64,000 nucleotides of DNA from Schmidtea nova (Eukaryota): the NCBI GenBank assembly GCA_044892505.1, contig CM097882.1, positions 299,584,001-299,648,000 of the forward strand, read 5' to 3'. Under the pieces are notes generated by a model. It was given only the letters and a program-made list of their open reading frames with translations. It searched no databases and had not been told where the DNA came from. The translations under genes were made by a program, and so were the position numbers. Numbering within the stretch: position 1 is the stretch's first letter; every line of letters starts with the position of its first letter. Positions 7,100 to 25,570 of the stretch are shown piece by piece.

Positions 7100-7466
7100 A
7101 AATGTTAATATTAGCTCGTTTAGAATGTTTTGTAGTACTATGTTAGCGATGTACAGAGGGAGAAAAGTAAGCGCCCGAGAGAGTCAGCCCGATTATTGTG
7201 GGGACACTCGGGGTGTATGTTATGTACGCAGGTGACTATATGGGTGTATACAGAAAACCAAATTTTTATAGAATCACAATATCTAACTAAATAACAATAA
7301 TAAAAACTTTTATTATATAACGCAGGAATAACCAATTTAAAGTTACTTTTGAATTAAGGAATAACTCTTCTTGGATACTTGGGAAAATAACTTGGATAAT
7401 GGCTGATTTGTTATTATTCTATTTATATTGTTATTATTGGATAAAAAAAATATTTGCTAGGAACGG

Positions 7467-7690
7467 GATAAATTGGCTTTACTTGTGATTTCTTTTAGCC
7501 TGAGTAATGATATTGGATGGAAAAATATTTGATAGGAATGAGATAAATTGGCTTTGTTTGAGTTTTCTTTTATCCTGAGTAATGATATTGGATGGAAAAA
7601 TATTTGATAGGAATGTGATAAATTGACTTTATTTGTGTTTTCTTATATCCTGTGTAATGATGTTGTATGGGAAAATATTTGATGGGAAAG
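7467..7690. repeat. 75-bp tandem repeat, about 3 copies
   Basis: GATAAATTG unit starts at 7467, 7542 and 7617 (period 75). Confidence 0.85.
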
Positions 7691-8292
7691 GAATCTTCTT
7701 TGGTAAATTTCTTTTACGATTTACAACAAATTTTTAACAATTTTCTTTTAACTTCATTTTCTTAATTTTTTTTTGAATCAATTTTTTTAATTATTCAATT
7801 TGGCTTACTATAGCTTTTGCTATAGCAAGCCAAATTTGAATTTTAAATGTAATAATAATAATAATTGGAATAAATATTTGCTGTCATAATAAAAAAGGGG
7901 GGGTTCCTGGTGTCCGCAGGGGCACCGTCCATAGTAATGACGGCGCTTACAAACTGTTGAAAGAATAATTACATGAACTAAACATAATATATATATCATC
8001 TAAATCATCTAATTCAAAATATTTTGCTTTATTTGTTGTGCATCTGTTAACTAGCGTGGGTTTAAAATCTATCATTTTAAGAAAGTCCTCCACGGGCCCC
8101 TTTTTTTCACCAATGGTATATTGTTGACCTTCCTACACCATACTCTTGGTACAAAATGCTTATTGACTCCTTATTTTCTAACCGGTTAACTGCATTATAA
8201 TTTCTCTTCAATTTTAATGATCAATTTTGATTTTTTGATTTTTAGCTATCAAGGGGGGGGGGGGGGTGAATCAATAAAAAGATTTAAATGGG

Positions 8293-8893
8293 TGTGGTGA
8301 TTCATGCATAGGCATCTGACCACACAGGTTGTATGTGTTCAATTGACATTTTGTGGTCGCCTATATTTTGTAATTTTTAAATGTAAAAATATTTGTGTAT
8401 TTTATATTTTTTATAAAAACTTTCAATTAATTTTTATGTTTGCTGTTTAAAAAAAAAAGCTTTTGTAAAGGTAAAAAAACAAATGAAACTTTGTTTAAAA
8501 AAAAAAGAATATAATGTATGGAAAAAATTTTGTTTAAAAGAAAAAATTTGGCGTTTTTTTAAAATAAACATTTACATCTTTAAATTTCTTTGTGATTTAT
8601 CTATTATTTTCGTTGATGAAATGAACGAAGTTATCCGACAGAAGATTAACGCTTATTTAACAGTATTTGATGAAATCTATAAAGATAATCTTCATAATCA
8701 TGTTTTGGAAATGATCGAGCAGCCCCTGCCTGCGAGAAATAGTGTTTTTGAGAGACTCGGCACTCTGGGGAAAGTCGTGACACCGCGGAGACTGATTAAC
8801 GGAGTAGAGAGTCAGAGGAACGGAGATTCCGCTCCTTTAACTATACCAACTGAGAAGCAAAAGCAGCAGATCCCGGACGTCGTAAACATTAAA
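8293..8893 (+). repeat. 5' LTR of gypsy element 1
   Basis: Differs from 14040-14641 by 3 substitutions and one A in a poly-A run. Confidence 0.93.
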
Positions 8894-10504
8894 ATGGTGT
8901 CAGAAGTGGCAGAAGATATTCTTGTTTCTACGTCTCTACATGCGCGAGACGAAGTCGTGCGACAGTCCGGACCACTGGAGACTCATACTCCTACCACTGC
9001 GGACGTCTGGGCCAGATTTGTCGATGTCCAGCATGTTTCTCTCGTGGCAAACTACGATCTCCTCACTATCCGAGAACTTTACTTTCAAGGTAACCACATT
9101 ATGTTAAATATTGTTCACCTTTTTAACTTGTGTGGTCTAGGCTTTTTGTGTGTTGTCGCCACATTAGCACCCTTACCTATTCCCTTATCTGGGGGGTCTA
9201 ATCTCAATACACATAAGGTACCTTGCACTGACATAATGGCAAATAATCAGGGCCATGCCGCCCTATGTGCTACTGAGGGTTTTGTTTTTGTCTCAACATC
9301 AGACAAGAACCGGATACTTCCCTTTAGTTTAAGCCTATCCTTTAAAGGACTTCTCAGTTACTTAAAATATGAGAAAAATGTTTACATAAATGACACGTAT
9401 GCTACATATAGGGGTTTTGTACATAGATTCGACGATCGACCCTTATATGAGCATATAAATGCTGGCGACACTATATATTTGCGGTACCGTATGCGCGGGG
9501 GCGCAGACAGTGACAATCCGTCTGTTTCAGACCAACCGCCTTCGCCTGGGACTACACAGCCAGACATCCCAACATCAATGCACAATTTGCCCAAGATTCC
9601 GTTCTTTTTGGATCAGAACGGATCTCCAGCATCCTGGTTTTTTGTACTGGAAAGACATTTTAGGATCATGACAATCACATCATCCTCCGAAATGTTCGAC
9701 CACTTGATCACCTGTTTGCAAAGGGAACTACTTTCGAAATTGGCTCATAATTTCTTGACCATTTCTACTTCTGCTGACCCGTACACAGCTCTTAAGAATC
9801 TAGTTCTCGAGAATTATCGCGAACCTAAGGCCGATATTTTCTCGCATTACTTCAAGGCACAGTCTCTCGGGTTACAACGTCCATCCGAATTCCTCAAAAG
9901 AGCCATTGATAACCTCGAATCCTTACAACAAGGTATCACTACCGACGACTCTCTGCTTCGTAGATTTTTTTTGTCGGCCTTGCCACCTCAGACACAGGCA
10001 ATATTGGCAGTTACGGAGTCAACCAACCTCCGGGATCTCGCCAATATGGCAGATAAAATCGCCAAAGCATCGGGCGTTAGCACGTCGCAACAGTGCAACC
10101 AAGTCAATTCGTTTGAGACTTTAGCCGCTGATACAGCCAGTTCAGCAAAGCGAAACATCCAGAGTTCAGATATAGTTTTGGCTGCAATTGAGCAGATATC
10201 TGATCGATTGAAGAAAATTGAGGCTCGGGATGAAAGACGGTCATCTCCGCACAGACGCACCTTTTCTCGTGAACGTTCTCTTCCCCGTCCTAAGAAGATT
10301 TGCTACTATCACGAAAGATTCGATAGAAAAGCTCAAAAATGCCACATAGGTTGCGAATATGCAGACAGGAGTTCAAGCTGTGAGCTTTTAGATGTCTGCG
10401 TCTATCATGGGAGATACAGGCAAGCAGCCAAATACTCTTTAGAAGGCTGCAGGTATTTCAAAAGTAATCCAGCACCGCAGAACAAGTCACATCCAAAAAA
10501 CTAG
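8483..10504 (+). CDS. gag: Extended Gag ORF: LTR-encoded leader + hydrophobic segment + ubiquitin-like domain + Mag-type Gag
   Basis: 673-aa ORF. PFFLDQNGSPASWFFVLERHF resembles the Mag Gag N-terminal motif, and there are two C-x2-H-x9-(C/Y)-x3/4-C motifs at the C terminus. Alternative in-frame ATGs at 8621, 9101 and 9236 (the last in good Kozak context). Confidence 0.85.
   Translation: MKLCLKKKEYNVWKKFCLKEKIWRFFKINIYIFKFLCDLSIIFVDEMNEVIRQKINAYLTVFDEIYKDNLHNHVLEMIEQPLPARNSVFERLGTLGKVVTPRRLINGVESQRNGDSAPLTIPTEKQKQQIPDVVNIKMVSEVAEDILVSTSLHARDEVVRQSGPLETHTPTTADVWARFVDVQHVSLVANYDLLTIRELYFQGNHIMLNIVHLFNLCGLGFLCVVATLAPLPIPLSGGSNLNTHKVPCTDIMANNQGHAALCATEGFVFVSTSDKNRILPFSLSLSFKGLLSYLKYEKNVYINDTYATYRGFVHRFDDRPLYEHINAGDTIYLRYRMRGGADSDNPSVSDQPPSPGTTQPDIPTSMHNLPKIPFFLDQNGSPASWFFVLERHFRIMTITSSSEMFDHLITCLQRELLSKLAHNFLTISTSADPYTALKNLVLENYREPKADIFSHYFKAQSLGLQRPSEFLKRAIDNLESLQQGITTDDSLLRRFFLSALPPQTQAILAVTESTNLRDLANMADKIAKASGVSTSQQCNQVNSFETLAADTASSAKRNIQSSDIVLAAIEQISDRLKKIEARDERRSSPHRRTFSRERSLPRPKKICYYHERFDRKAQKCHIGCEYADRSSSCELLDVCVYHGRYRQAAKYSLEGCRYFKSNPAPQNKSHPKN
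8895..8909 (+). promoter_or_regulatory. Primer binding site, tRNA-Leu type
   Basis: TGGTGTCAGAAGTGG is the reverse complement of CCACTTCTGACACCA, the 3' end of metazoan tRNA-Leu(CAG/CAA) plus CCA. It lies just after the 5' LTR. Confidence 0.85.
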
Positions 10505-10539
10505 TCTCGCCATCTCTGTACGCGGCATGCACAGATGGC
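10495..10539 (+). promoter_or_regulatory. -1 programmed ribosomal frameshift signal (gag-pol)
   Basis: A AAA AAC heptamer in the gag frame just before TAG, 7-nt spacer, then hairpin GCCATCT/CTGT...ACAGATGGC. The -1 frame is open into the FLVDTGS protease motif. Confidence 0.8.
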
Positions 10540-23910: not shown

Positions 23911-24960
23911 TTAAATAAAATGATCATTTTTACCACATTTTAAACAACATTTGCTTAAAGGACAATTGTTCCGAATATGACCTGATTCACCACAACAATA
24001 ACATTGACCGGGTTGTAAGGGTCGCAATTCTGGTTCCGGAAACCCTTTCGCTTTGTTGTAAACTCGTCTTGCAATATGTTTCATAGAAACCATAGGCCTA
24101 TTGGGTCTCTCATTAACCAATAAACTTTCTGAACTTCGCCTTCTTTCAGTGAAATGTGGTCTATTGCCATTTTTTTCGTAATTTCTTTTATTACTGACAT
24201 ACCGATTAGTCTCTGGAACTGATGGTCTAATCACTGGGTGAACATTCTGCCTTATTGGGATTTTATTTCTTGTTACAGATGCATATGACGATTGTTTCCT
24301 ATTATCTGCCAGTGCAAATATCTCTCTGGTGTCTTCTGTATGTAAATTATTTTCAAAGTTTACATTCATTTTCTCTATTTCTGTGAGAGATACTTCTGGG
24401 TTCATTGCAATTGCATCCTTAACTTTTTCTGAATACATACGTTTTGTAACAATATCCTTGACAATCATGTCTTCCGTTTGATTTGCGGAAAGAACTTCAC
24501 GGACTAATTTCCTCACTCTGATTATAGAATTTTCAAACCTTTCGTCCGATCTCTGCTTTATCAGACTCATGTCTTCGATATTTTGTAAAAAACTTTTGGA
24601 TTTTACATATTTTAAAATAAACCAACCTTTTACCTCTTGATCTGAAGCCAGAGTCTTAAGTGTCTCCTTAAAGGCCATCCATATTTCTTTTGCATCTCCG
24701 TGTAATAATAAATCGAATGCTGCTCCTAAATTGAGCGAATTTATCGTCACAAATTCTTCAATAGATTCAAGCCAGTCCTTTCCATTTTCTTCTTTTCCTC
24801 CAAAAAACTTCTTTATCTTTGGGTAAATCGATTCTTGAATATTTTTTGGCAAAGATTCGACAATTTTCTGCCTTTGTTGTGATCTTGTAATAGCTGCGAT
24901 TTCGGCGTGGTCGCCAGTAACATTTCCATTATTAGTCATAATATAAGACGTTATTTCCAA
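23911..24960 (-). CDS. gag: Gag of element 2 with CCHC knuckle and truncated second knuckle
   Basis: KFFGGKEENGKDWLESIE capsid-like N terminus, CYCCGESGHIRNNC, then CLKCGKNDHFI*. First in-frame ATG is at 24939, inside the LTR. Confidence 0.8.
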   Translation of the reverse strand: MEITSYIMTNNGNVTGDHAEIAAITRSQQRQKIVESLPKNIQESIYPKIKKFFGGKEENGKDWLESIEEFVTINSLNLGAAFDLLLHGDAKEIWMAFKETLKTLASDQEVKGWFILKYVKSKSFLQNIEDMSLIKQRSDERFENSIIRVRKLVREVLSANQTEDMIVKDIVTKRMYSEKVKDAIAMNPEVSLTEIEKMNVNFENNLHTEDTREIFALADNRKQSSYASVTRNKIPIRQNVHPVIRPSVPETNRYVSNKRNYEKNGNRPHFTERRRSSESLLVNERPNRPMVSMKHIARRVYNKAKGFPEPELRPLQPGQCYCCGESGHIRNNCPLSKCCLKCGKNDHFI

Positions 24961-25570
24961 AATTCTATTCTATTTAAAACTGTAATATTTAAACAAATAT
25001 TAATNNNNNNNNNNNNNNNNNNNNNNNNNNNNNNNNNNNNNNNNNNNNNNNNNNNNNNNNNNNNNNNNNNNNNNNNNNNNNNNNNNNNNNNNNNNNNNNN
25101 NNNNNNNNNNNNNNNNNNNNNNNNNNNNNNNNNNNNNGTTAATTATTTGCGCCACGGCTTATTCTCCGGATTTGTTTGTAGTGGTGATAAAAATAAAAAT
25201 TGTAAAAATCAGATTTTCCGGATCTGAACTATTTTAGTAAGTTTTTATGTAAGACTTCAAGAGATTTCATTTTTTCTAAATATCAGTCTGTTACGTGAAA
25301 ACGATTTAGAGAATATGATACCAAACTTGAATATAAATTAAACGAATAGTAATAAAATATGACAAATGAGTTTGTGTAACAAAAATGACTTAGAAAAAGA
25401 TTGCTTTTAACCATTCGACTATTTATTTTTAATTTAATTTATCTTTACTTGTTTTTAGATTATAGATTAATATTTTTATTTATTAAATATTAATTTTTGA
25501 CAATTTATTTAACATTTTTGTAAACACTTGAAATTTCATGTTGAAGAGAAAAAATATATTAATCAATTAA

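Follow-up and report, generated by a model that had tools for sequence, protein, structure and literature searches.

The stretch of DNA analysed here, hereafter the window, is 64,000 nucleotides of contig CM097882.1 in the Schmidtea nova assembly GCA_044892505.1 (positions 299,584,001 to 299,648,000, forward strand). It holds a 6.35-kb Ty3/gypsy retrotransposon (window 8293-14641), in which a ubiquitin-like domain (Ubl) lies in frame ahead of the capsid protein Gag. The domain is almost certainly a diverged ubiquitin homologue, and it probably serves as a site where Gag is cut away from whatever is translated upstream of it.

A Ty3/gypsy element with a single open frame from the LTR to Gag

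The element exhibits the hallmarks of Ty3/gypsy elements: long terminal repeats (LTRs), a target-site duplication, a primer-binding site (PBS), a polypurine tract, and the order protease, reverse transcriptase (RT), RNase H and integrase. A single frame is open from 8417 to 10504 (695 codons) and runs through the LTR, PBS, leader, Ubl, linker and Gag. Cargo below denotes the pieces, some recognizable as host coding sequence, that occupy the LTR and leader. The features of the element are as follows.

8288..8292 and 14642-14646, +: 5-bp target-site duplication ATGGG, read from the sequence
8293..8893, +: 5' LTR, 601 bp, from repeat comparison with the 3' LTR
8361 and 8563, +: TATA-like site and AATAAA, respectively, motifs inside the 5' LTR
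8621..8893, +: LTR cargo frame beginning MNEV, in the Ubl-Gag frame, from the open frame and copy comparison
8894-8896, +: ATG in frame with Ubl-Gag, overlapping the PBS
8895-8909, +: PBS, complementary to the 3' end of host tRNA-Leu(CAA)
8897..9274, +: open leader from PBS to Ubl, containing ATGs of the same frame at 9101 and 9236; weak or no protein-level constraint
9275..9502, +: Ubl, 76 codons with YRMRGG at the end; cleavage predicted after 9502
9503..9601, +: acidic and Pro-rich linker (ADSDN...), predicted N-terminus of the trimmed Gag, with an in-frame ATG at 9578
9602..10504, +: Gag, with a DUF7041 region at 9623-9829
10301-10354 and 10397-10450, +: CHCC knuckles of Gag; in the window copy, Ser takes the place of the third ligand in the second knuckle
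10495-10501, +: A AAA AAC slippery-type heptamer, ahead of the gag stop
10468..13914, +: pol in the -1 frame (aspartic protease, RT, RNase H, integrase), from Pfam and open frames
11464-11466 and 12916-12918, +: in-frame stops that break pol of the window copy
14030-14039, +: polypurine tract
14040-14641, +: 3' LTR, 99.3% identical to the 5' LTR

The motifs, which alone set the borders, would divide the 5' LTR into U3, R and U5, with U5 from about 8590. The PBS pairs with the host intron-containing tRNA-Leu(CAA) across 15 nt, CCA end included, and 5-bp target-site duplications are present at further copies of the family too. The genome is AT-rich and 1.25 Gb in size, and it contains at least 63 copies of the family with 88-100% Gag identity; among 12 copies fetched whole, the pol frame reaches at least 1,140 codons in five. 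Assembled contigs of four runs match the stretch, mostly at 90-99% identity, and are uninformative on starts and strand.

The LTR termini are unusual, starting with TGT and ending with TAAA rather than CA (window 8293-8295 and 8890-8893), and the LTRs of other family copies end with TAAA, TACA, CACA or CAAA. Tandem arrays of the family, spaced by ~5.8 kb (4.5 kb once), lie at G000:C3:1967169-1985450, G000:C3:136378037-136390464 and G000:C2:37212922-37218289. The Leu tRNA 3' end has 793 matches across the genome, and a tRNA tandem array (Gly, Gln and intron-containing Leu-CAA; unit 0.9-1.35 kb) extends from G000:C2:300510470 onward (L177).

The segment ahead of Gag as a diverged ubiquitin

The first-pass annotation, made from the letters of the window, had placed a 74-residue segment at 9281-9502 (+), ending YRMRGG, followed by ADSDN and in the Gag frame, and translation confirmed all of this. 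We set the domain boundary at 9275, two codons further 5', so that the domain comprises 76 residues, which align with host ubiquitin without a gap. Only 11 of the 76 residues of the window Ubl are identical to those of host ubiquitin, and a Pfam search of the segment gave no match at E ≤ 10, including to ubiquitin (PF00240). One copy from a sister family passed the PF00240 cut-off (26.8 vs 25.4 bits), and the others scored E 4e-5 to 0.2. Language-model features of the window segment pointed to ubiquitin clusters (0.93), which we took as a lead only.

Homology was assessed with a profile of 25 retroelement segments from 12 families (see below), the alignment of which contained no ubiquitin. Against the PDB, this profile matched single ubiquitin along its full length (positions 9-78) with E 1e-6 to 6e-6, and also ISG15 and SUMO; ubiquitin-family chains made up the best 60 of its 525 matches. 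HHalign of the profile with host ubiquitin gave a probability of 95.8% over 69 ungapped columns. With its own family left out of the profile, the window segment scored 23.8 bits, above all 300 body-shuffled controls that kept the real tail, and the body without the tail was equalled by two of 300 shuffles. In the corresponding test of every family, 10 of the 12 passed and family E was marginal (one of 300 shuffles scored as well). The breadth of the alignment mattered, since a five-family profile had matched the last 17 columns only (23%) and the comparison became clear once 12 families were used.

The AlphaFold2 model from the 12-family alignment (predicted local distance difference test score, pLDDT, 86.6) has the order strand-strand-helix-strand-strand-strand, which is that of ubiquitin. 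The top rows of a Foldseek search with this model were ubiquitin or Ubl chains or fusions, at a template modelling (TM) score of 0.54-0.66, and the VIA fold search matched the TINCR Ubl (Z 10.5, root-mean-square deviation (rmsd) 1.8, 71 aligned), ubiquitin (Z 8.8, rmsd 2.6, 73 aligned) and, among others, FUBI. We conclude that the segment is almost certainly a diverged ubiquitin homologue with a predicted β-grasp fold. The ubiquitin-like identity proposed in the first-pass annotation is thus borne out by the clade profile, HHalign and the shuffle controls, and the β-grasp fold that it had envisaged is what the AlphaFold2 model and the structure-based searches predict. As for the ubiquitin motifs that it had listed, the C-terminal one is closely matched; the others are ubiquitin's own and are not closely matched in the window Ubl.

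The Ubl across the Gag clade

Relatives were collected through Gag searches, which yielded six further families in the same genome (Gag core identity about 60, 48, 45, 41, 40 and 42%) and five proteins from other data sets; the range of the clade outside this genome is that of these five proteins, which came from two word-indexed searches. The window's family is called A and the others of the genome B to G. In all 12 families, a segment of 70-80 residues ending in Gly-Gly lies directly ahead of a short linker and Gag, and in all 12 representatives the Gly-Gly is in register with G75-G76 of ubiquitin, which agrees with the expectation that these residues would be conserved in relatives. Five more distant Gags from the same searches have no Ubl segment, and in the Gag tree, the only phylogeny in this work, the 14 rows with a Ubl split 100/100 from five relatives without it. 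Evidently, the Ubl marks the whole Gag clade and is not a capture peculiar to the window element. The earlier description of a captured, fast-evolved Ubl holds for its divergence and gives way for its capture by this one element.

G75 and G76 are the sole invariant columns among the 25 segments, and the family representatives are 9-33% identical to each other. Across the 12 families the Gly-Gly is followed by A, M, S or Q (A, M or S in 11) and in no case by Pro, residue 73 is hydrophobic or Ala in all 12, and Arg72 is retained in eight, with Pro at this position in two. The tails, for example MRGG, LRGG, LTGG, LKGG, LYGG and IYGG, follow a hydrophobic-X-Gly-Gly pattern. Core positions stay hydrophobic across the families and surface residues vary freely. 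Ile44, Lys48 and Lys63 are each retained in one of the 12 families, and the window Ubl has Thr, Phe and Ala at these positions. Since the three residues are mostly lost, a tag for conjugation is a poorer fit than a processing site cleaved by the host, and the conservation pattern as a whole would suit a processing site more than a signalling ubiquitin. The same losses weaken the decoy role that had been offered for the domain.

Gag itself had been annotated as Mag-type. CCHC-type zinc knuckles in Gag are a feature of the Mag clade, and the Gag of the window element gave no zf-CCHC match in Pfam. It contains two arrays of the CX2HX9CX3C (CHCC) knuckle instead, as do 12 of the 14 clade rows (of the exceptions, one row is incomplete and the other has a single match). 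On this pattern the Mag assignment is not supported, and Gag appears to be CsRn1-like by its CHCC signature, a clade label that follows the knuckle pattern.

Translation and selection on the Ubl

For family A, we analyzed 63 copies chosen through Gag. The Gly-Gly is retained in 62 of them (the remaining one is not covered), as is the ATG at 9578 in 62 of the 63. Among variants found in at least two copies, the counts of which are inflated by tandem duplicates, the Ubl shows 11 silent and 8 replacing changes (omega 0.23, p=0.002), the Gag core 15 and 8 (omega 0.16) and the leader 17 and 31 (omega 0.63, p=0.08). Ubl variants present in four or more copies comprise eight silent and one replacing, and they are spread over the whole domain. 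A first count for this family (8 silent, 0 replacing) was dropped, as its copies had been ranked by similarity to the Ubl itself. In families B to G pooled, omega is about 0.46 in the Ubl as against 1.0 in the leaders, and the Gly-Gly is lost in five of 52 matched copies. This pattern of substitution indicates that the Ubl is translated and under purifying selection in the window's family. Furthermore, five of the 12 families have no Met between the Gly-Gly and the Gag core; Gag in these families would therefore be made through the Ubl.

Host mRNA pieces in the LTR and leader

The LTRs of family A have their initial 100-300 bases and a short stretch at the 3' end in common, and the middle part is swapped among copies. 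Among the 57 copies with a PBS, to which the following counts refer, the Gag frame stays open over at least 100 codons leading to the PBS in 49, and either other frame in none. Three kinds of cargo are firmly identified: the N-terminus of the PP2A scaffold subunit (PP2A-A) in 17 copies (E 2e-51), Aurora kinase in one (E 4e-49) and the winged helix of MCM8 in one (E 2e-22). A POTRA-like piece in three copies is a weak match (E 0.11); 'SAM50-like' would be a tentative label for it, based on this match. Two ATG-led cargo frames of unmatched source occur in about 21 copies (the window's type) and nine copies; source searches gave no convincing match for the LTR cargo of the window copy itself and no match for the MDVD-type cargo. 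A further piece is common to families A and C and is in frame in one family A copy. No host source gene turned up for the PP2A-A piece, which outside LTRs has two matches of just 70% identity.

The chance that the three firmly identified pieces would all be in frame is 1 in 27, and for seven cargo types, each with an in-frame copy, it is about 1 in 2,000 if they are independent. Cargo frames are free of stops and frameshifts in 23, 18 and 10 copies, and they seem to need to be open rather than functional. In the four variants examined, AATAAA lies 15-60 bases 5' of the cargo ATG, a spacing that would assign the cargo to U5 and put it at the transcript's 5' end. The first-pass annotation had linked the Ubl to tolerance of a long leader, a link that gains from the captured host coding pieces upstream.

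Sister families likewise carry host pieces. Family F has tetratricopeptide-repeat and catalytic pieces of O-GlcNAc transferase in its leader, frames of family G begin with NOMO1 and histidine-phosphatase pieces, and P0017 has a 5'-nucleotidase piece; the sister-family cargo loci were picked partly for long frames and are not a fair test of the in-frame habit. Family D has ankyrin/DUF5586-like pieces in a 2.4-kb LTR. Cargo pieces also occur nested, in the 5' LTRs of L003, L005, L020, L028, L141, L159 and L173.

Ubiquitin ahead of Gag in a Bel/Pao lineage

A Pfam ubiquitin search of the genome scored 150 rows, of which 14 were host-type and 136 were further rows, many of them in frames of more than 1,000 codons. 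In 16 further rows that we inspected, the ubiquitin is 88-95% identical to that of the host (four aligned) and mostly stands behind the tail of another ubiquitin unit and pieces of Hsp70 or Hsp90. Three such elements fetched whole are Bel/Pao by Pfam, and in them the ubiquitin precedes Gag in one frame. The Bel/Pao LTRs are 99.7-100% identical in five copies, and at the DNA level their ubiquitin most resembles a single polyubiquitin gene of the host (81-86% vs 71-80%). One of seven Bel/Pao relatives from outside (P0020) has a more diverged ubiquitin at the same place. A second superfamily has evidently reached the layout of ubiquitin before Gag independently and recently.

This Bel/Pao family is high-copy, with the order Hsp70 piece, ubiquitin tail, near-authentic ubiquitin and Gag(-Pol) (L074-L095, e.g. 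G000:C1:391871000-391880999), and some relatives have an Hsp90 piece instead of the Hsp70 piece. Many copies are without pol, and some lie in tandem arrays of 4.5-5.6 kb.

A proposed cut between the Ubl and Gag

We propose that translation would start upstream of the Ubl, at the cargo ATG (8621) or at 8894, 9101 or 9236, and that a -1 frameshift at A AAA AAC (10495-10501) would produce a Gag-Pol with the same Ubl tag. A host deubiquitinase or Ubl protease would then cut after the invariant Gly-Gly, as the biology of pestiviruses and ubiquitin precursors suggests, and free Gag and Gag-Pol with a constant N-terminus, which would be ADSDN in the window element. The cut would insulate capsid assembly from anything translated upstream, which is the weakest step, and this insulation would allow the family to keep host mRNA pieces, presumably acquired by RT template switching, in frame in the LTR and leader. 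Cleavage after the Gly-Gly, argued by analogy, is likely; the account as a whole, with the Ubl as a cut-off site ahead of Gag, is probable; and we incline only slightly towards insulation as the purpose of the cut. A wider scheme, which we hold to be possible rather than probable, is that ubiquitin was adopted twice as an insulator to be cut by the host, once by an old gypsy clade of CHCC type and once by a young Bel/Pao lineage. The LTR would thereby become an interchangeable cassette, in which host mRNA 5' pieces captured into U5 supply the start codon and the host-peptide-Ubl-Gag fusions are cut, so that the element would borrow host translation starts or camouflage and shed the PP2A-A and Aurora kinase fragments.

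Several observations weigh against the cut-off account. First, identity to ubiquitin is low and the Ile44 surface, a contact for many deubiquitinases, is gone, so that recognition by the enzyme is not assured. Second, the profile built without family D missed that family's domain (33 of 300 shuffles reached its score), and an earlier AlphaFold2 model from the narrower five-family alignment was unusable (pLDDT 43.6). Third, the direct contrast between Ubl and leader in family A reaches only p=0.11, the Ubl is weakly constrained in families B and C (omega 0.79 and 0.93), and the losses of Gly-Gly fall in three of 13 family-E, one of 11 family-B and one of five family-G copies. Fourth, seven of the 12 families, including the window's, have a Met after the Gly-Gly that is able to start Gag alone. 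At last, the copies share ancestry, and about seven capture events underlie the in-frame count of 49 out of 57; the cargo shared by families A and C is out of frame in three tandem copies; protein-level selection on cargo is not significant (p 0.08-0.34); and the in-frame bias could arise as out-of-frame starts suppress Gag translation.

The Ubl might be cut off and yet serve to boost the translation or folding of Gag, as for L40 and S27a, and to leave a stabilising N-terminal residue, with leader and cargo being incidental. A, M and S, the residues that follow the Gly-Gly in all families but one, are stabilising under the N-end rule; the host carries fusions of ubiquitin to L40 and S27a (Ub-L40 and Ub-S27a); and P0003 starts at Met1 of its 76-residue Ubl with no leader on record. 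However, this leaves the open upstream frames unexplained, and in the three of 12 families with Met after the Gly-Gly, cleavage would give the same N-terminus as plain initiation. We consider it unlikely in place of the cut-off account, with which it is compatible as a side benefit.

Rather less likely again is that the freed Ubl is itself the product, being conjugated or jamming a host E1, E3 or deubiquitinase to protect the element. Selection acts over the whole domain and not on the tail alone, Arg72 is often retained, and Burro elements have several domains of the ubiquitin pathway (PMC6431247). The near-complete loss of Ile44, Lys48 and Lys63 and the Pro at position 72 in two families speak against this role, and the contrast of variable surface and hydrophobic core is no help to it, as a folded core would also be needed by a protease. 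We regard it as very unlikely that the Ubl remains attached to Gag to mediate interactions, as in Rad23 or parkin, or that it is a relic and not translated: the fold searches did return uncleaved UBL domains with similar Z, and an internal Met could start Gag in the seven families above, but the Gly-Gly alone is invariant, exactly at the end of ubiquitin, and purifying selection excludes a relic in the window's family. Least probable of all, a cut by the protease of another mobile element (a Ulp1-like or adenain-like enzyme, specific for xxGG sites) would suit the hydrophobic-X-Gly-Gly tails and the extreme divergence from ubiquitin, but a linear-motif protease does not need the whole fold that is kept, and the window element's own protease is aspartic only.

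The trimming of retrotransposon Gag is normally the task of the aspartic protease that the element itself encodes. If the cut-off account is true, Gag with a ubiquitin tag that the host removes would mature by another route, one so far known from short-lived pestivirus mutants but fixed over a clade here and re-invented in a second superfamily. The tag would give a mechanical reason for the tolerance of in-frame host sequence upstream of Gag, and such elements would continually generate reading frames that join host and transposon sequence. Meanwhile, the 12 diverged domains, all ending in Gly-Gly, could serve as a natural panel for the minimal requirements of deubiquitinases.

Comparison with known systems

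The host precursors polyubiquitin, Ub-L40 and Ub-S27a likewise have a ubiquitin fold ending in Gly-Gly fused ahead of another protein, and FUBI-S30 is a case of a diverged, still-cleaved ubiquitin-like copy. They differ from the present domain, which is encoded by a mobile element and has largely lost Ile44, Lys48 and Lys63. The closest precedent is that of the cytopathogenic pestiviruses, in which a captured ubiquitin-type insert in the polyprotein fixes the downstream N-terminus. Their cellular inserts include ubiquitin and NEDD8, as in bovine viral diarrhoea virus (BVDV) Osloss, CP1 and CP Rit (PMC8310069, PMC13517609); the ubiquitin inserts of cytopathogenic BVDV are cut by host hydrolases, and CP Rit has ubiquitin-NS3 behind an S27a fragment (PMC8310069). 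The pestivirus insert is near-authentic ubiquitin in short-lived mutants, whereas the Ubl described here is clade-wide, has 8-20 of 76 identities, lies ahead of a capsid protein and is cleaved only by prediction.

In the giant planarian gypsy element Burro/GYPSM1, a Ubi2/SUMO-like domain (PF11976) is listed among captured host domains (PMC6431247). That domain is internal to a 25-30 kb element, downstream of Gag and between MATH and BCL-2 (PMC6431247); in contrast, the window Ubl is N-terminal to Gag in an element of ~6.3 kb, and the Burro section of that paper proposes no processing role (PMC6431247). CsRn1, PwRn1 and AgCR are described with the CX2HX9CX3C knuckle and with gag and pol overlapping in the -1 frame (PMC2582038), and the window element resembles this clade in both its CHCC knuckle and its -1 gag-pol overlap (PMC2582038). 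However, the clade as described there (PMC2582038) has one knuckle and a tRNA-Trp primer, whereas the window element has two knuckles, tRNA-Leu(CAA) and a Ubl.

In LTR-mediated retroposition, RT template switching is reported to bring host mRNA into LTR elements, frequently in mosaic form (PMC5131818). The cases given there replace internal coding sequence, whereas the pieces here lie in the LTR or leader of multi-copy elements with an intact Gag, and in frame. The fixation of extra domains in LTR elements is treated as rare in PMC9289625. The word 'ubiquitin' is absent from the main text of PMC2582038, PMC3118150, PMC2774666 and PMC5131818, and a search of the open literature, outside which lie Repbase Reports, subscription journals and supplements, found no report of a Ubl ahead of a retrotransposon Gag. 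Processing of ubiquitin fusions is thus a known device, and its place before a retrotransposon Gag was not found described in the open literature.

Other features of the window

A second gypsy element, broken, lies at 21259-25004 (-) with a CCHC Gag and 89-bp direct repeats; its Gag (21.4-25.0 kb, -) starts at its own Met and has no Ubl. A 207-codon frame at 49768-50391 (+) combines an Asn-rich stretch with a piece of TCP-1 chaperonin and a piece of dual-specificity phosphatase, and it is likely another chimera of captured host fragments. Pieces at 48302-48941 and 53153-53941 resemble Penelope-like elements, with RT recognized by Pfam and an endonuclease-like piece by eye, and the first of the two intervals forms an apparent short inverted repeat that is read on both strands. 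Upstream of the Ubl-Gag element, a 75-bp unit is present in three tandem copies at 7446-7688.

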